Assembly (NCBI RefSeq): GCF_963921235.1
Contig: NC_086097.1
Span: forward strand, 18,726,001 to 18,790,000
DNA: 64,000 nucleotides
Direction of reading: 5' to 3'
Origin: Mobula hypostoma
Lineage: Eukaryota
The first letter of the stretch is position 1. Every line of letters begins with the position of its first letter. A model generated the notes under the pieces. That model saw only the letters and a list, made by a program, of their open reading frames with translations, was not told the DNA's origin and made no database searches. Positions 2,797 to 64,000 of the stretch are shown one piece after another. The position numbers and the translations under genes were made by a program.

Positions 2797-3762
2797 TACA
2801 CTCAGTGACCATTTTAATAGGTACCTGCTCTACTCCTGCTATTTAATGCAAATATCTAATCAGACAGGGTAGTGGATAGTGGCTCCATATGTCACTACTA
2901 CAGGGCGTGACGACCCTGCCTTACACGAGTCCTGGGCTCAGCTGGCTCCGGCTGACAGTACCCGGGTATGGGTCTCTATCCACTGCCTTGTGGGTATCTT
3001 CGGGAGAAGAGGAGGCTAAGGAGTAAACCCTACACAAATCCGGAGAGGAGACCCTAAGGCAGTCAGATGACGTATCACGTCACCACCCGGCAGCTCCTGC
3101 AGCCAAGCTGATGCCAAGTGTACTGCTTTGCATTCCTTTGGACCACATCCGCGAGGCCGAGAGGGGGATCTTGATGTCTGGGCAGCCCAGGATCTCCATA
3201 TTCATCACCCAGGTCTGCGCCCTGGAAACCGGGCGCATCCATTGTCTACTGAGACAGATGGAGCCATCAATCAATCAGTCAATCCTGTGACTCTAAGTGA
3301 CTTTGACAGTGGAAGATTGTTGGTGTCAGTTGAGACGGTTTGAGTCATCGAGTCATAGAGAAACAGGCCCTTTGGCCCATCTAGTTCATGCGAGCCATTT
3401 AAACAGCCTACCCCCATCAACCTGCACCGGGAGTGGTCATAGAGAATCTCAGAGTATCTCAGAAACAGTTGATCTCCCAGGATTTTCATGCACAACAGTC
3501 TCTAGGGAGAATGGTGTGAAAGTCTTACAGAGAATGGTGTGAAAAACAAAAAACATCCAGTGAGCAGCAGTTCTGTGGCGAAACCGCCTTGTTAATGAGA
3601 GAAGTCAGAGGAGAATGGCCTGACTGGTTCAAGTAGACAGTAACTCAAATAACCACATGTTACAACAGTGTTGTGCAGAAGAGCCTGTCTGAACTCACAG
3701 CATATTGAAACTTGAAGTGGATGGGCTTACAGCAGTAGAAGACTATAAACACTCAGTGGCCA
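2797..3762 (+). mobile_element. Tc1/mariner-derived non-autonomous element with nested insertions
   Basis: The terminus TACACTCAGTG(G/A)CCA is shared with the copies at 29101-29590 and 48819-49430. Degenerate transposase N-terminus (LSDFDSG...TTVSR). Interrupted by an (ATCA)n-tailed retroposon at ~2864-3277. Confidence 0.65.
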
Positions 3763-55722: not shown

Positions 55723-57142
55723 CTCAGAGTGATTGTAGAGGAGAGCTTGTCTTTTAGCAGGCACCACCAGCGGGAAAGGCCTGTCTCCAACTAAGCACAG
55801 ATGCCATGCTGCACCGTCTCTGGCGTCTCTTCTCCAGCACTGCAACAGCAGGCAAGGCCATGGCTTGAGGCCTATTCCTTGCTACAAGCAAGGGCAGGCA
55901 GCTCCCATGCCGCCTTTTGTGCTATTGAACAAGGGAAACAGGCCGGCGGACTCTACAGCTGGTGGGGTGGAGCTACGATGGTGCTCAACAGCAGCTCTTT
56001 CGAGCTTATCTGCAGAAAAAAATTATTTTCTACCTTTTCAGGATGGATGGGGTTCTGCTGATGACCCTGGCTTGGAGTTACACTCAGTCTTCAGTTCTTT
56101 TCAATAGTGGGACCCGCTCCAGGGGCTCACACCATCCACTTTTTGAAATCCCAAGGACGCAGCCTAGAAAATGAATGTGCCTTTAGGGTTCTGAGGTATC
56201 ACAGCCCTGCAGATGGGCTGATTCTATGCCCGTGCCATTGACAGAAGTGCCATGGGAGAAAATGGAATATAGGGAACAGCGGAGCGGCTGTTGGAGGCTC
56301 CATACTCTGTGAATCTCTCTCTCTCTCTCTCTCATTGACAGAGAGTTTGTTGCTGATTCTGGAGAACTAGGAAAGAAAAGCAACGCGACAGATCATAAAT
56401 CAATAATTTGCTTTGTCATGTCTCCCCTCTCACTGTGAAAGGGGGACACCTTTCTTTATTAGGGAGAGAGAGCCTCTGGTATTTTGAATTGTCAGGCGAA
56501 CGATTAGTTTTTGTTGTACTGCAGGTCATGGTCTTTCTTAGGGGCCTTGCTATTGTATGCTTGGTGGGTGGAGGGTTTGATGCTTTTCTGCGGAAGTTGG
56601 CGTGGGTGGGGGAGGGTCGTTGGTGTGTTGCTGCTTGTGTGTGGGAGGAGTAGTAGGGGGGACTTTGGAGTTCTAACATTTTTACTGTTACTCATTCTTT
56701 GAGGCATTCTGTTTTCCTGGATGTCTGCGAAGAACAAGAGTTTCAGGATGTATATTGCATACATTTCTCTGATATTAAATGGAATGATTGGACTATTGAA
56801 AATGATCAATGTTCAGCAGGGTCTTGAGATCACAAGAGAGTTGTCCAATTCAATTAACCATCGTTACAGCATGCTGTCTTCGCGCACCAACTTTAATACC
56901 CTTGAGTAGAAGGCAGTTCCTCTGAACCTAATCCGACTCCACCAACATACTGGCTGGCTTCACTGACACCCTGGCCAGCTACTCTGATCAACGAGCAGCT
57001 CACTGATGGGATAGGCCTGCATTGCTGAAGTTCATGGAGTCCAATATTGTCTTGCGATCGTTAAAAAACACACTAACAAAGAAAAAACACCATTGATTGC
57101 ACCCACAGAGACCACTGAGTCTGAACATGCCGCTATCTTACC

Positions 57143-58285
57143 AGAACACACACAAAATGCTGGGGGAACTCAGCAGGTCAGGCAGCATCTATGGAAGTGA
57201 ATGAACAGTTGACATTTTAGGCCTTCTTCAGGACTGGAAAGGAAAAGGAAAGATGCCAAAATAAAAAGGTGGGGGAAGGGGAAGGAGGACAGCTGGAAGG
57301 CTGGAGAATAGATGAAGCCAGATGGGTAGGAAAGGTCAATGGCTGGAGAGGAAGGAATTTGATAGGGGAGGAGAGCGGACCATAGGAGAAAGGGAAGAAG
57401 GAGGGATCCAGAAGGAGGTAATGGGCAGGTGGGAAGAGCTATGAGGCCAGAGTGAGGAACAGAAGAGGAGGGGAGGGGGTGGGAAAACATTTTTTTACAG
57501 GAAGAAGAAATTGATATTGATATTGATTGAATATGAGCCATTTCTACGGCAAACTTTGCTATGTCTTGTGTTTACATTACAAAGAGCATTTCTCACACAG
57601 AAGTCATAAGTAACCTTGACTCTGAGTGTACTGAATGCCCCTCATGGGTTCCCTGATTAAATTCTTGACCTATGACCTAGTGGCAAGCAAAAACCTACTT
57701 GGGAAGCCTTATTAGTCTACTTAGTTTAGCCTTTCTACAACAGCCCATCCTGATGTCACAGAATCACATGTGTTAAATGGAACAAAAGCAGGTCATTCAG
57801 CCTAACCATCCAAGCTTCTTGCCATCTTTCCTCACCTAAATCTATTAACTGTAACCCTGTATTCCCTTCCCCCCTCTCTATTTACATTATCTTATTCCGG
57901 CTCCCCTCTTACCCTTTCCCCTCCTCACCTGCTTATCACCTCCCTCTGGATCCCCCTCTTCCATGATCCACTCTCATCTTCTATAGATTCATTCTTCATT
58001 CCTTTACCTCTTCCACCAACCAGCTCCATTCCTACCTCATCCCTCTATCCCACCCACTTTCCCCCTCACCTGGATTCACCTATCACCTGCCAGCTTGTAC
58101 TTCCCCTCTCCCTATCTTCTTCTTTTTGTGTCTTCCCCTTCCTTTCCAGTCCTGATGAAGGGTGTTGGCCTAAAATGCTGTTTATTCCTCTCTATAGATG
58201 CTGCCTGATCTGCTGAATTCCTCTATTCCCTTCACCTTCTCACAGATTTGTTTTTTGCAAAGGTCCCAGCATCTGCATTCTGTTA
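57143..58285. mobile_element. two degenerate PLE terminal repeats (57143-57520 minus; ~57900-58285 plus)
   Basis: Similar to the CAGTCCTGAnGAAGG...GATGCTGCCTGACCTGCTGAGTTCC end sequence, with mutated hammerhead cores. Confidence 0.65.
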
Positions 58286-59029
58286 TACCATCATCTGTTT
58301 GTTCCTGACATGTACCCAAACTATTTACCACAAACACACCCTCCGCTAGCAAGATCCACATTCTCACAATCTCTTGGGAAAAGAAGTTTTTAATTCCCCA
58401 CAAGATTCCTTGACAACCCTGATATGTTAATGGCCTTTAATTAAACTCTACCCTACAAGTGAAATGTTATCTTGGTATCAATTTCAGCATTGCTTTCTGT
58501 AAAGAAAAGAGACTAGACCAAGTTAGTTAACTCTTTCCTGATAGTATATTATAAAAGCATAAGATATAGGAACAGAATTAGGCCATTTGGCCTGTCATGG
58601 CCCATCATGGATGATTCATTTTCCCTCTCAGACCCAATCTCCTGCCTTCTCCTTGTATCACTTCATGTCCTAACCAATCAATAATCAATCAACTCTGCCT
58701 TAAATATATCCAATGACTTGGCCTCCACAGCTGCCTGTGACAAAGAATTCCACAGATTTACCACACTCAGGGACGGTGCTAAGGTGGTGCTAGCTGGTGC
58801 TATAGCACCAGCAGAAATTACAATAGCACCACCAAGAAATTAACTGAAATTTGTCCACTCTATACTTCTGCTTATTCGTTTGTTGTTGATGTCTTGCCGT
58901 TGCTGTCCTCAGGTCAGTTAAGCTGATCTAAGATCACTTAAGGTAGTGATGTCACTCACTCTCACTAACGTGAGAGATTGATAGTAAACATCCAGGCACA
59001 GATCCGTGGTCTTGCGAGACTAACGGATG

Positions 59030-59063
<34 letters not shown>

Positions 59064-59073
59064 CGTGCTTTTA

Positions 59074-59160
59074 CAAGCTAGCGAGATGGCAGTGCTACTG
59101 AACCTTCTGCAGACCCAGAGTAACCTCAGCGTCTCCCAGCTGGCACAGGCGCTCAATGTC
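59074..59160 (+). pseudogene. CDK12: captured CDK12-like C-terminal-region fragment
   Basis: [29 protein letters not shown] resembles the post-kinase segment of vertebrate CDK12 ([26 protein letters not shown], recalled from memory). Confidence 0.75.
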
Positions 59161-59162
59161 GA

Positions 59163-59609
59163 CACTTTAGGTTCTTTGCAGTCCTTTGCATTGATCTTGG
59201 CCGCCACCGCGGCTCTCGCCTGCTTCATTTTGCTGAGCTCGGCGCCCAGGCTGAACGTGAGGGTAAACTGCCCAGGGGAGATGCTCAAGTGCTGACTGGG
59301 AGATCGGGACTGCCTGTGCTTACTGTGCAACCGCGAGGGCCTCAAGTACAATGGGCTCTGGCTCCTCGACTTCACTGACCTTCTGGTCACTGGACTTTGA
59401 CTGAAGGATCTCCTGCTGCTGTAGGGGCTTATAGACCGCCGCCTGCCGTAGGGGCTTGCTGACCTCCCGCCGCACTCGTACGAGCTGCTGTGCCTGTCGT
59501 AACTGGGTGACCGGGGTGGTCTGCTGTAAGGGCTCGAAGACCTTTGCCTCCTGCCGTAAGGACTGGGCGACCGCATGTTATATCCAGTGTGATAGGCTGC
59601 GGGCTCCCT
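59163..59609 (-). pseudogene. CDK12: captured CDK12-like N-terminal RS-domain fragment (~149 codons, open)
   Basis: REPAAY...[18 protein letters not shown]...[12 protein letters not shown]...KSRSQSP...SISP...SLGAELSK...RAAVAAK matches the order of motifs in the CDK12 RS domain (CDK13 is the close paralogue). GC-rich relative to its flanks. Confidence 0.82.
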
Positions 59610-59680
59610 ACAAGTACAAAGTATGAAGTATATAAAGTAGTTTGGGCCTGACACGTGCATTATTTTGGCCGGTGTGAAAA

Positions 59681-62183
59681 ATGGATCGATTTTTAGTGAG
59701 AAAACGACCTCATCCAGAGGAATCAGTGGTGTTTCAACCTGAGCCTGTCTTAATTGAAAGTGACATGCAGAAAGAAGTAAGTGGGGATGAGGATGACAGC
59801 AGTTCATCGAAGGAGTGTGAGGGCGAAGTAGAGGAACAAGAAATGGAGCGGGATTCAGAAGAGAACGTGGATGAAGCTGCTCTTAGTGCTAGTGGGAATA
59901 CTGTTAGTGATGTTAGCCAGCAGCCTGAGGAAGGACCCCGTCGGCCAGGATTGAAAAAGTACCCTTCGCTGCTTGCAATGGCTTGGCAATCAGCAAAGGA
60001 GTTTTACTCGTGGCTGGTTTGACTGACTGGAATATTCGATCACGAAAGATACTACGTTCTGCTTCGCATGCAGGCATTTCCTGTGTGGAGGACATGGGTT
60101 CCATTCTGAGTCTACCTTCACTATCACCGGTTACCGCAACAGGCGGAAAGCTACAACAGCTTTCAAACCCACCATGTAAGTGCAGCTCATAAGTTTGCGA
60201 TGGAGGCATGGGCCGAATTCAGATTGAGAAAACAAGGCGGTTCAAGATTGGGAAATATGCTTGAAAAAGGACATGCAAAGATTGTCCAAGAAAGTCGTGA
60301 GTATATGAGAGCAGTGTTTGAGTCTCTACGCTATACTGCGTGCCAAGGCATTGCCCAGCGAGGACACCGGAAGGATGATGGATCTGGGAACAGGGAAAAC
60401 GTCCTGACGAAGGGTCTCGGCCTGAAACGTCGACTGCGCCTCTTCCTATAGATGCTGCTTGGCCTGCTGCGTTCACCAGCAACTTTGATGTATGTTGCTT
60501 GAATTTCCAGCATCTGCAGAATTCCTGTTGTTTACAGGGAAAACTTCGTTGAGTTGTTCAGTGAATTGGGAAGTTTGATAAGACTGTAACTAAAAAAAAT
60601 AGAGGACAATCCTGGAAATGCAAAATACACCGATCACGATATCCAAAATGAAATTATGGGTATTATGGCAGATATGGTCAGACGTCAAATAAGTGCAGAA
60701 ATCAAGGAGGCTGGGCATTTTGCCATCATGGTGGATGAAAGTAAAGACTTGAGTAAAAAGGAGCAAATATCAGTGGTGGTGCGGTATTTGAATAACGAAA
60801 CAGTGCTTGAAGAATTCCGACACTTCACTCCAGCAGAAGGGTTGGACGCAGAGTCGCTCCTTCGAAGCATTGAACAGACACTTGCCCAGTGTGTTATTGA
60901 TAAGAACGCGTGTATGGGTCAGTGTTATGATGGGGCGACAGTGATGCCCGGGTGCAATAACAGGGTACAAGAGAGGTTCAGGAAAGAGGTCCCGCAGGCA
61001 TTATATATACACTGCCATGCTCACAGACTTAACCTTGCTTTAGTGGATGTTGTGAGCAATGTACAACAAGAGGGCGGGTGAGTTTTTGAAACTGTGCAGC
61101 TGCTTTACAACTTCTTTTCAAACTCTGATGCCCACGATCTTTTCGTGAAGAAACAGAGAGAACTGGAATCAACTGCACAGTCCGTGGAGATGAAGAAATT
61201 GTCGGATACACGCTGGGCATGGCAGTATACAGCTTTGTGGGCTATCAGGAAATCACTCCCTGCCATTCTAGCTACACTACAGGATATTATGGGTCAAGCA
61301 AATGCACGAAGGAAAACGGAGGCCAGAGCTGCAAATGGATTGATTGACGAGCAGTTTGCTTTACTTCTCACTCTGTTTGAGGATTTATTCCAAGTAATCA
61401 AGTTCATATCAGACCAGCTACAATCTCCCAGTTTGGAGCTTTCATCCGCTGTGGACTTGGCTCAGTCTGTTATTGATGCACTCTCAGCGAAACAGGGAGA
61501 GGAATCATGGAGTGAAATTCAGGCAAGAGCTAGGGACCTGTGTGTCAAGGGCGGTATACAGAGCAGACCACATGAAAGGAACATCAGGCCCAGCCACCCC
61601 GCCGCCTACATGATTTTGTTGTTGAGGTCCAAATTGAACGCACACCAGTCACATCCTCTGATGACCTTTGCAAGCACTGTTTCTATCTGGTTATAGACAG
61701 ACTTCTGACTGAAATGAAAACAGGGTTCTTAATTGAGACTGGGGGTGTTCTGACTGGAGTCTCCGCACTGAGTCCCAAACACAAGTACTTCCTAGACAAG
61801 AATTGTCTTTGGCCAATGACCCAATACTATGGAGTGACTAAAGTGAACCTGACTGCAGTTCAGCATCTGCTGGAAACAAAACAAAGCCAAGGACATTCAG
61901 TGGAATTTCTAGCTCTAATGAGACCCTACTGTGATGCATTTATAGATTTTTACAAACTAATCTGCATACCACTGACTCTACCTGTGACATCTGCCTCATG
62001 CAAACGGAGTTTCTCTTGCCTCAGACTACCTAAATCTACTTAAGGAATAGCAGCAGCAATGCTCGGAACAGCAGCTTGGCCCTGTTGGCCATAAACAGCC
62101 AGAGGACCAAAGCATTTGGCATCCAGAAAATCACTGATGCTTTCGCCACCAATCACAACAACAGATGGATTGTGCTTCTCTGA
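59681..62183 (+). pseudogene. hAT transposase (TTF-type Zn finger, DUF4371-like region, C-terminal dimerisation domain), frameshifted
   Basis: MDRFLVRKR start, LEYS...FCFACRHF, RGH...N.ENFVEL, FAIMVDESKDLSKKEQISVVVRY, QCYDGA, YIHCHAHRLNL, LSDTRW and LTLPVTSASCKRSFS, with multiple frameshifts and stops. Confidence 0.92.
60401..60533 (+). mobile_element. 133-bp PLE terminal-repeat insertion with intact hammerhead core, inside the hAT transposase
   Basis: Perfect 11-bp TSD ACAGGGAAAAC (60390-60400 / 60534-60544). Removing it restores GSGNRENFVELF. Confidence 0.92.
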
Positions 62184-62737
62184 AAACATCAATGGTGAGT
62201 GCAGTTGATTTTTTTATAATTTGGGCCAAGACTAATGCTGATTATTATTATTATTATTATTTTGTGGTGGATACGCCATAGTCCTTATGTTTCCTGCAAA
62301 TCCTAAAATATTACATTTACTGCTATTAAGCCCGCTGGTTTTGCTTAGACTTCCAAGCAGTGATTCTGTTGATTTTTGTTTTAAATTCAGTAGTCGAATT
62401 AATTGAGGTATTGCATGGTCAGAGTATGATTTGTCCAACTCCTGGTAAAGCCTTGCATCTGTCGTTTGCCTTATTTCACTTTAATAACGGTGTATCTTTT
62501 GGCATTGTCTGTCTATGTAATGCAAATAGCAGTGGACATTGTGGGTTAGTGCTGTGTTTTTCAGTTGAAAAGTACGCATTTGACGCTGATTGCAGGATTT
62601 GTGCGTGAATCACGTTGTGCGCTGTGGTTCGGATGCTCTGTTGGTTTGTTTGTTTATGCTCTGTGTAGCCCGAATTGCCTCCGATGCTGTTGACACTGTC
62701 ACAGTTCACTTCTATATTATATCTATAAATTGCTGTT

Positions 62738-64000
62738 ATAGACAATAGACAATAGACAATAGGTGCAGGAGTAGGCCATTCACTGTGATCATGGCTGATC
62801 ATCCATTATCAGTATCCAGTTCCTGCCATATCCCCATAACCTTTGATTCCGCTATCTTTAAGAGCTCTATCCATCTCTTTTTTAAAAGCATCCAGAGACT
62901 TGGCCTCCACAGCCTTCTGGGGCAGAGCATTCCATATATCCACCACTCTCTGAGTGAAAAAGTTTTTTCCTCAGGTCCGTTCTAAATGGCCTACCCGTAA
63001 TTCTTAAACTGTGGCCTCTGATTCTGGACTCACCCATCAGCGGGAACATACTTCCTGCCTGCAGCGTGTTCAATCCCTTAATAATCTTATATGTTTCAAT
63101 AAGATCCCCTCTCAGCCTTCTAAATTCCAGAGTACACAAGCCCAGTCGCTCCAATCTTTTGACATATGACAGTCCCGCCATCCCGGGAATTAACCTTGTG
63201 AACCTACACTGCACTCCCTCAATAGCAAGAATGTCCTTCCTAAAATTTGAAGACCAAAACTGCACACAGTACTCCAGGTGTGGTCTCACCAGGGCCCTGT
63301 ACAGCTGCAGAAGGACCTCTTTGCTCTTATACTCAATCCCCTTGTTATGAAGGCCAGCATGCCGTTAGCTTTCTTCACTGCCTGCTGTACTTGCATGCTT
63401 GCTTTCAGTGACTGATGTACAAGAACACCTAGATCTCGTTGTGCTTCCCCTTTACCTAACTTGACTCTATTTAGATAATAATCTGCCTTCCCGTTCTTAC
63501 CAACAAAGTGGATAACCTCACATTTATCCACATTAAACTGCATCTGCCATGCATCTGCCCAATCACCCAGCCCGTCCAAGTCACCCTGCATTCTCGTAAC
63601 ATCCTCCTCACATTTCACACTGCCACCCAGCTTTGTGTCATCGGCAAATTTGCTAATGTTACTTTTAATTCCCTCATCTAAATCATTATACATATTGTAA
63701 ACAGCTGCGGTCCCAGCATTGAACCCTGCGGAACCCCACTGGTCACCACCTGCCATTCTGAAAGGGACCCGTTAATCGCTACTCTTTGTTTTCTGTCAGC
63801 CAGCCAATTTTCAATCCATGTCAGTACTCTACCCCCAATACCATGTGCCCTAATTTTGCCCACTAATCTCCTATGTGGGACTTCATCAAAGGCTTTCTGA
63901 AAGTCCAGGTACACTACATCCACTGGCTCTCCCTTGTCCATTTTCATAGTTACATCCTCAAAAAATTCCAGAAGATTAGTCAAGCATGATTTCTCCTTCA
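62738..64000 (-). mobile_element. CR1 LINE (RT to tail), continues beyond the window
   Basis: ORFs 62882-63983 with DFQKAFDEVPH, KFADDTKLGG and RPHLEYCVQFW, and an (ATTGTCT)n tail at 62738-62762. Confidence 0.93.

Follow-up and report, generated by a model that had tools for sequence, protein, structure and literature searches.

The presence of host gene fragments between the ends of a DNA transposon raises the question of how they came to be there, and of whether the transposon itself took them up. Such a case occurs in the genome of the cartilaginous fish Mobula hypostoma, in a stretch of 64,000 nucleotides (hereafter the window; G000:C1:18726001-18790000, contig NC_086097.1) that holds a copy of a transposon of the hAT superfamily with an insert derived from the gene for cyclin-dependent kinase 12 (CDK12). 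A previous sequence-only reading of this DNA had proposed Pack-type gene capture, in which the CDK12 fragments are cargo of a transposase-bearing element. We argue instead that the insert is probably an RNA-templated, end-joining-type templated sequence insertion, namely a one-off repair patch made from the spliced CDK12 mRNA of the host. The event is best explained as neither transposon-mediated gene capture nor classical target-primed retroposition by a long interspersed nuclear element (LINE). The coordinates of all features are given in Table 1.

An insert in a single copy of the element

The GC-rich island that the sequence-only reading had recognized between the left end of the element and the transposase start codon is present, and its limits can now be placed at 59084-59642, which gives a length of 559 bp. 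Its GC content reaches 58-60.5% (200-bp windows, 59100-59599), compared with 40-47% in the adjoining windows. A survey of the genome with 58768-59700 as the query gave 1009 candidates, of which 40 were scored, and these included 37 other copies of the element that match the 5' 316 bp. The insert is present in none of these 37 copies, and 36 of them run straight into the equivalent of 59643-59700. A base-level alignment of ten hAT copies gives the same result, with the insert in 0 of 10. At the insertion site, the family sequence in this alignment is AAGCTAGC, followed by G or A and then by TGGGCCTGGCACGTG (copies read TGGGCC after the variable base), and the window copy reads AAGCTAGCG, the 559 inserted bases and then TGGGCCTGACACGTG. 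No hAT base was lost at the site and none was duplicated. A search of the 3.48-Gb, 200-contig genome with the island alone returned four candidates, all of which were scored; one is the island, and the other three are stretches of CDK12 exons on contig C91. The parent gene is accordingly located on C91 and the insert on C1. The best reading of these observations is that the insert is a one-off at this locus and not a family cargo that spread.

These results bear directly on the Pack-type proposal, according to which the CDK12 fragments were gained by the hAT lineage and moved with it. The sequence does lie between the terminal inverted repeats (TIRs) of an element whose 8-bp target-site duplication (TSD) is clean, so that later movement of the copy together with the fragments is conceivable. 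Animal Pack-TIRs also typically show microhomology at their breakpoints (PMC8277862). However, no scored or aligned copy carries the insert, and nothing like it occurs elsewhere in the genome apart from the CDK12 exons themselves; copies without the island are what the sequence-only reading had itself associated with a one-off insertion. Moreover, the capture is intron-less, whereas Pack elements copy genomic DNA, and an insertion in the 5' leader is likely to have disabled the copy. Taken as family cargo, the insert would be very hard to account for, and we regard this explanation as highly improbable.

Identity of the fragments

The sequence-only reading had assigned the minus strand of 59609-59163 to the arginine/serine-rich (RS) domain of CDK12 and a plus-strand stretch to a helix beyond the kinase domain, and both assignments hold. 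Translation of the minus strand between 59163 and 59609 yields 149 amino acids rich in Arg and Ser, which match 550 proteins at E<=0.001 in a search limited to longer proteins. A concern with such a sequence is that its matches may reflect low-complexity RS similarity only. Among the 120 matches listed, however, all those with a descriptive name are cyclin-dependent kinase 12, and the rest are unnamed or 'hypothetical' proteins that carry kinase domains. The best match listed covers 100% of the query at 89% identity (E 5.9e-68), and the nearest matches come from rays and sharks. The plus-strand translation (about 59074-59165) is identical in 24 of 32 positions (E 3e-13) to residues 1081-1112 of a 1504-aa CDK12 (P0002), which map beyond the kinase-bearing exons. 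This piece corresponds to nt 34-119 of exon 13, and its start is corrected from 59074 to 59080. Kinase-domain sequence is missing from the insert, as had been stated before. Pfam searches with the island translations gave only sub-threshold matches to TOH_N and HTH (E 0.006-0.05).

Apart from itself and the C91 gene, the RS fragment has a single genomic match, on the minus strand at G000:C1:246939247-246939456 (locus L027), with 59% identity over 70 aa; this is presumably the CDK13 paralogue. Neither DNA nor protein searches found a second CDK12 in the assembly, and they recovered only the C91 gene and the 59%-identical paralogue. By these comparisons, the fragments derive from CDK12 rather than from a generic RS protein or CDK13.

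A spliced RNA as the source

The CDK12 gene, as located by tblastn with a CDK12 protein, consists of 14 coding segments over C91:71841535-71955986 (approximately 114 kb). Genomic exon 1 ends with ...GTGACCAG (...GACCAG) followed by gtacat, and exon 2 begins right after ...cctttgcag, 32 kb downstream of exon 1. In the island, the two exons are fused exactly at these GT/AG splice borders and the whole of the 32-kb intron 1 is gone. Such an exact junction with the intron removed implies that the source was RNA or complementary DNA (cDNA), and that the capture proceeded via RNA, unlike the DNA-level capture of Pack-MULEs (Mutator-like elements) and Pack-TIRs.

The pieces can also be placed along the transcript. 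In a 4750-nt transcript contig from public runs X1 and X2, two runs presumed to be RNA on the basis of a guess, nt 764-1210 correspond to the exon 1-2 block and nt 3314-3399 to the exon 13 stretch, so that the exon 13 piece lies about 2.1 kb further 3' along the mRNA. At all 37 listed exon 1-2 sites where the island differs, the contigs from these runs have the C91 form. The three outer ends of the CDK12 pieces are all exon-internal (exons 1, 2, and 13 of 14), with no mRNA 3' end among them, and reading of the sequence revealed no poly(A) or A-run at the ends of the insert. Finally, the island shares a derived Asn (KVNAKD) with the CDK12 of this genome, against seven of seven other aligned CDK12 proteins, which indicates that the CDK12 of this lineage was the source.

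We also note the setting of the parent gene. In the region C91:71826001-71996000 (L028-L044), CDK12 is located about 1.1 Mb from the end of a 73-Mb contig, its first intron measures 32 kb, and the GC content at third codon positions of exon 1 is 0.85.

Junctions and filler

On the plus strand, hAT sequence up to 59083 is followed by exon 13 in sense orientation, exon 2 and then exon 1 in antisense orientation, the filler, and hAT sequence again from 59643. The junction microhomologies measure 4 bp at the left and 2-6 bp. At the inversion junction, CGGCAC of exon 13 corresponds to CGACAC of antisense exon 2 (CGRCAC), with five of six bases in common, and it is at this inner junction that the 3'-most mRNA positions of the exon 13 and exon 2 pieces are united. 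A whole-genome search that allowed up to three mismatches matched the filler at its own place only, and a comparison with 170 kb of the CDK12 locus and with window positions 57001-64000 gave no significant match, only chance-level matches of 9-12 nt. One of these, CAAGTACAA, lies inside the island at 59343-59351. The ten-copy alignment shows no TSD around the island. The same hAT copy provides an internal control in this respect, as its two other nested retro-inserts do have direct repeats, of 11 bp and 5 bp.

The junctions are informative regarding LINE-mediated retroposition, in which a LINE reverse transcriptase would have nicked the hAT element and retroposed a rearranged CDK12 mRNA fragment by twin priming or template jumping. 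LINE activity on this copy is evident from the two nested retro-inserts, and the source was indeed a spliced RNA. Furthermore, the approximately 7-nt periodicity of the filler recalls the microsatellite tails of LINEs, and the nested LINE at this locus ends in a 7-nt repeat. However, the island has no TSD although both LINE-type inserts of the same element have one, and it contains neither poly(A) nor an mRNA 3' end, every fragment being internal. Its geometry is also the opposite of that produced by twin priming. Twin priming puts the 3'-most mRNA positions of both pieces at the outer ends, whereas here they meet at the inner junction, and twin priming was rejected on this geometry. LINEs can also insert independently of their endonuclease, in which case a break that already exists is closed with reverse-transcribed RNA and no TSD is made, and in twin priming the inversion arises within the copy of one RNA. 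The insert differs from both endonuclease-independent LINE insertions and twin-primed retrocopies in that it has no LINE sequence or poly(A) and in that its orientation pattern is opposite. We consider a LINE origin unlikely.

The combination of no TSD, no loss of hAT bases, no poly(A), junction microhomologies, a 33-nt filler, and a spliced template leads us to read the insert as a templated insertion of class 2, a type described below. The events may then have run as follows. A full-length hAT element would have inserted into an older LINE-derived repeat with the TSD ACCACACT. In this copy alone, a break would have arisen between the (CA)n tract, which ends 21 bp upstream of it and is a possible candidate for a fragile site, and the transposase ATG, which begins 38 bp downstream of it. 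The break would have been sealed by the 559-bp patch reverse-copied from spliced CDK12 mRNA, with the end of exon 1 and the start of exon 2 in antisense, joined head-to-head at the CG..CAC microhomology to the 86-nt sense stretch of exon 13, and the 33-nt stuttered filler would have closed the patch. One simple route that would yield the observed order is for the 3' end of a cleaved mRNA, located in exon 13, to fold back on GUGUCGG in exon 2 and prime cDNA synthesis. Alternatively, a repair polymerase may have switched templates at the microhomology. The insert would have stayed put afterwards.

Divergence from the parent gene

The island differs from the parent gene at 45 of 444 aligned coding sites (about 10% divergence) and has one extra codon. 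When seven other CDK12 proteins are considered, 12 of the 13 amino-acid differences and the extra codon are island-specific, and the remaining difference (Ser to Gly) is placed on the parent lineage. At CpG sites, 19 bases of parent CpGs are altered in the island and 3 in the opposite sense, with altered bases numbering 2/22, 8/29, and 9/29 at codon positions 1, 2, and 3, respectively. The similar values at positions 2 and 3 make the CpG decay look unconstrained, and the best explanation of these counts would be that the insert has decayed since its arrival, chiefly at CpG sites. The hAT copy has private differences at 69 of 1918 non-CpG sites (3.6%) and at 13 of 93 CpG sites (14%), as counted with copies picked as best matches, among which one of the eight loci in the first block duplicates another. 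The island differs at 2.4% of its non-CpG replacement positions (6/245). An island age similar to, or somewhat younger than, that of the hAT copy would be compatible with these values.

The divergence also speaks to the quality of the assembly, as gene fragments that lack introns and lie at unexpected positions may signal an artefact or contamination of the contig with cDNA. A contaminant would be near-identical to its source, whereas the insert is about 10% diverged from both the gene and the expressed mRNA. It also shows CpG decay and an extra codon, and it is precisely seated inside the hAT element with microhomology. An artefact can practically be dismissed.

Several points nevertheless weigh against a neutral patch of the resident mRNA. 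Neither the break nor the responsible reverse transcriptase can be observed, nor whether the event took place in situ or before the copy transposed to this site; the repair and the sequence in which templates were switched are, like the break and the enzyme, inferred. More specifically, 32 of the 45 differences (71%) are synonymous, compared with 16.4 +/- 2.9 expected if the same mutation classes are placed at random, and 0 of 5000 such simulations reach 32. The pairwise ratio of non-synonymous to synonymous divergence (dN/dS) between island and parent is 0.105, and the non-CpG differences amount to 3/126, 3/119, and 20/119 at the three codon positions. If the island was neutral, about 25 synonymous changes would have to be placed on the parent branch, or approximately 3.6 times the expectation. 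In addition, the long stop-free frame over the RS fragment would have no explanation other than chance and its coding origin. The synonymous excess would be explained by fast GC-biased synonymous change in the parent, which is plausible but not proven. The region of the parent gene is 52% GC and climbs to 55-60% further out, while the window is 45% GC, and 12 of the 20 non-CpG third-position differences have G or C in the parent and A or T in the island.

A different account of the excess is that the CDK12 sequence is not a plain dead copy of the resident mRNA. The predominance of synonymous changes at non-CpG sites resembles what is seen when two functional coding lineages are compared. Either selection acted for a time on the 305-codon RS frame, or the template of the cDNA belonged to another CDK12 lineage, namely a lost duplicate or retrogene, or the CDK12 of a sister species; we hold this account to be unlikely. 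In-situ selection on the RS frame was tried as an explanation and is disfavoured by the CpG decay, which affects 10/51 bases at positions 1 and 2 together and 9/29 at position 3. The second variant can be put in terms of a separate, constrained CDK12 lineage, either a lost retrogene or duplicate (DNA-level) or the CDK12 of a close species that arrived with a horizontally transferred hAT element. This would account for the approximately 13-20 excess synonymous non-CpG differences and for the near absence of amino-acid change on the parent side, as well as for the fact that the non-synonymous non-CpG divergence of the island fits the private divergence of the hAT copy while its third positions do not. 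However, a second CDK12 as source is not found in the assembly by DNA or protein search, the RNA contigs show the C91 form only, and the derived Asn is common to the island and the CDK12 of this genome. The hAT copy is not a clear outlier either, being 91.6-93.3% identical to other copies that are 92.3-95.2% identical among themselves. Moreover, the GC-rich surroundings of the parent, close to the end of its contig, make fast GC-biased synonymous change plausible. A separate lineage consequently has a small share of our credence, and horizontal transfer from a distant species is disfavoured by the derived Asn shared with the resident CDK12. If a sister species was in fact the source, the insert would be a 'passport stamp' of a hAT copy that moved after the capture, possibly across species.

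Open frames and expression

The RS part is encoded on the strand opposite to that of the transposase, in agreement with the orientation given by the sequence-only reading, and by this geometry a transcript of the hAT strand would be antisense to CDK12 exons 1-2. The insert also contains an ATG-led frame of 69 codons (59086-59295) upstream of the transposase ATG. The 559 nt added to the 5' leader, together with this upstream frame, probably helped disable the copy, and hampered translation of the transposase would fit the absence of daughter copies. No contigs that span an island junction were found in runs X1, X2, X5, and X6, although contigs rather than raw reads were searched and cannot show absence; X5 had no matching contigs at all. 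The runs showed the parental CDK12 transcript and hAT 5' ends that lack the island, and a search of public runs found none holding more than 0.08 of the words. The insert itself is most likely functionless.

Contigs that match the hAT 5' coding region (59643-59800) with 90-99% likeness are abundant in X2 and also occur in X6, which is from another organism. These contigs indicate that the hAT family, or a relative of it, is represented in the X2 and X6 libraries as RNA or DNA.

The carrier element and its other inserts

The limits of the carrier agree well with those first proposed. Its left end at 58768 is the common start of about 37 other genomic copies, and the transposase ATG at 59681 is kept in 9 of the 10 aligned copies. 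The octamer at 58760-58767 had been predicted to be the TSD, and the right TIR had been expected past the LINE. Both are as foreseen, for the right TIR ends at L019:702-709, the octamer ACCACACT follows at L019:710-717 (together window-equivalent 64702-64717), and the element terminates at window-equivalent 64709. By alignment, the right end was found to read ...CCGCCACTG, with ACCACACT immediately after it. Homology with other copies extends through 62737, is interrupted by the LINE, and resumes at L019:534-709. The left TIR, CAGGGACGGTGC, and the reverse complement of the right end, CAGTGGCGGAGG, agree at 8 of 12 positions in the window copy. In family copy L022, the TIRs agree at 10 of 12 positions and a perfect 8-bp TSD, ATTCTGAC, is present on both sides. 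The flanks of the window copy on both sides are the continuation of one older LINE-like repeat, and from these alignments the hAT element is seen to have transposed into that LINE-derived repeat, generating the TSD ACCACACT. The older target copy spans 58560-58767 and continues from L019:718 on, and its family is similar to that of the nested LINE.

The decayed transposase of the window copy matches DUF4371 (E 2.2e-12) and, weakly, Dimer_Tnp_hAT (E 0.0029, with 17.8 bits under the Pfam cut-off of 21.4 bits). Family copy L014 (G000:C91:27232327-27236383) has a 518-aa open reading frame with matches to DUF4371 (7e-11) and Dimer_Tnp_hAT (1.5e-9); this stop-free frame is on the minus strand at L014:2109-3662. 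As both domains lie in one such frame, parts of the hAT family are far less decayed than the window copy. Judged by its 8-bp TSD, its short TIRs, and a transposase with a dimerisation domain (clear in L014), the carrier is a member of the hAT superfamily.

With respect to the other nested inserts, the 133-bp insert splits the transposase frame, is missing from copies L020-L022, and resembles the 3' tail of a retroelement or short interspersed nuclear element common in this genome. The nested LINE continues at L019:1-533, inside the hAT 3' region, and the translations of its minus-strand frames are reverse-transcriptase-like by eye; it terminates in a microsatellite with a 7-nt unit, which on the plus strand reads (ATAGACA)n. 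Family copy L022 (G000:C21:13777800-13782700) has a copy-specific insert of its own, of approximately 830 bp (L022:809-1642), near the start of the transposase region.

Table 1. Positions of the hAT copy, the CDK12-derived insert, and associated features in the window
Feature	Position	Strand	Remarks
hAT element copy	58768..64000, continuing past the window end to window-equivalent 64709	+	~3.4 kb minus three nested inserts
Left 8-bp hAT TSD, ACCACACT	58760..58767		Same octamer directly 3' of right TIR
(CA)n microsatellite, hAT family sequence	59034..59062		In 10/10 aligned copies, length variable
Copy-specific insert (island), 559 bp	59084..59642		Other copies join 59083 directly to 59643
AGCG 4-bp microhomology of hAT and CDK12 exon 13, left junction	59080..59083		Family AAGCTAGC; exon 13 ...aaccagAGCGAGATGG
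CDK12 exon 13 fragment (post-kinase helix), both ends exon-internal	59080..59165	+ (sense)	82/86 (95%) to C91:71941871-71941956
CDK12 exon 2 fragment, first 223 nt	59160..59385	-	196/226 (87%) to C91:71874148-71874373
CDK12 exon 1 fragment, last 224 nt	59383..59609	-	209/227 (92%) to C91:71842180-71842403
AT-rich filler, 33 nt, non-CDK12	59610..59642		~7-nt periodic AAGTA
Stop-free frame of 305 codons over RS fragment and hAT flanks	58965..59882	-	From the open reading frame list
hAT transposase remnants	59681..62183	+	At least 7 broken frames (open reading frame list); Pfam domain matches
Nested retroelement-tail insert, 133 bp	60401..60533		11-bp direct repeat ACAGGGAAAAC at 60390-60400 and 60534-60544
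Nested LINE 3' fragment, ~1.8 kb	62738..64000, to window-equivalent 64533	-	Flanked by CTGTT (5 bp)

Relation to known systems and significance

Plant Pack-MULEs and multicopy Pack-TYPE elements are non-autonomous, capture genomic DNA, and are amplified together with their cargo. The insert is similar to Pack-MULEs in that gene fragments, which in those elements are sometimes of several sources and in either orientation, lie between TIRs. It is unlike them in that it is not amplified and is RNA-derived.

A survey of 100 animal genomes counted 370 Pack-TIRs, of which 208 are hAT and only 4 are multicopy (Tan et al. 2021, PMC8277862). Microhomology was found at 67.6%, and most cases were assigned to transposition-independent gap filling; antisense transcripts to the parent gene are discussed as a possibility (PMC8277862). 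Single-copy Pack-TIRs and the present insert have in common host sequence between TIRs, single-copy occurrence, and microhomology at the breakpoint (AGCG here). However, the former are described as DNA-level events, mostly less than 15 kb in cis, in short degenerate relics (PMC8277862), whereas the present insert is a spliced copy of a parent on another contig and sits in a full-length, transposase-bearing carrier. According to its methods, the survey discarded intron-less captures of multi-exon genes (PMC8277862). Events like this insert therefore fell outside it. The Turmoil-1 element of Caenorhabditis elegans carries a fragment of the SR-protein gene rsp-2 in its inverted terminal repeats, with the intron kept, in several copies, and without selection (PMC2572040). 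It is likewise an animal DNA transposon with splicing-related gene fragments that are not under selection, but the present insert is spliced and single.

The closest likeness is to templated sequence insertion polymorphisms (TSIPs) of class 2, which have no TSD or poly(A), carry microhomology and non-templated nucleotides at their junctions, and may be templated by cDNAs of several spliced exons (PMC5110952). They are interpreted as the repair of double-strand breaks with a reverse-transcribed patch (Onozawa et al.; reviewed in PMC5110952). The insert resembles them, as they are presented in that review, in being a short patch from a distant transcribed locus with a spliced cDNA template and the same junction marks. 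TSIPs are described there from human cells and as human polymorphism, whereas this insert is fixed and old, occurs in a cartilaginous fish, and lies inside a transposon. It also differs from the TSIPs of that review in being composed of two oppositely oriented segments of a single mRNA with a 33-nt filler. A literature search on CDK12 with hAT, transposon, or retrocopy brought up no report of a capture of this type. Our verdict is that the insert is a new example of an already described type of event.

For the interpretation of other genomes, the locus implies that a host gene fragment between transposon TIRs is by itself insufficient to call transposon-mediated capture. The internal controls available at this locus help to separate the insert from LINE retroposition and from Pack-type capture. 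For the animal itself, the biological consequence of this single decayed event is probably nil, and at most the insert helped to immobilise the copy that it entered. On the reading favoured here, the locus is a clean, datable natural case in which a chromosome break of a cartilaginous fish was patched from an RNA template.

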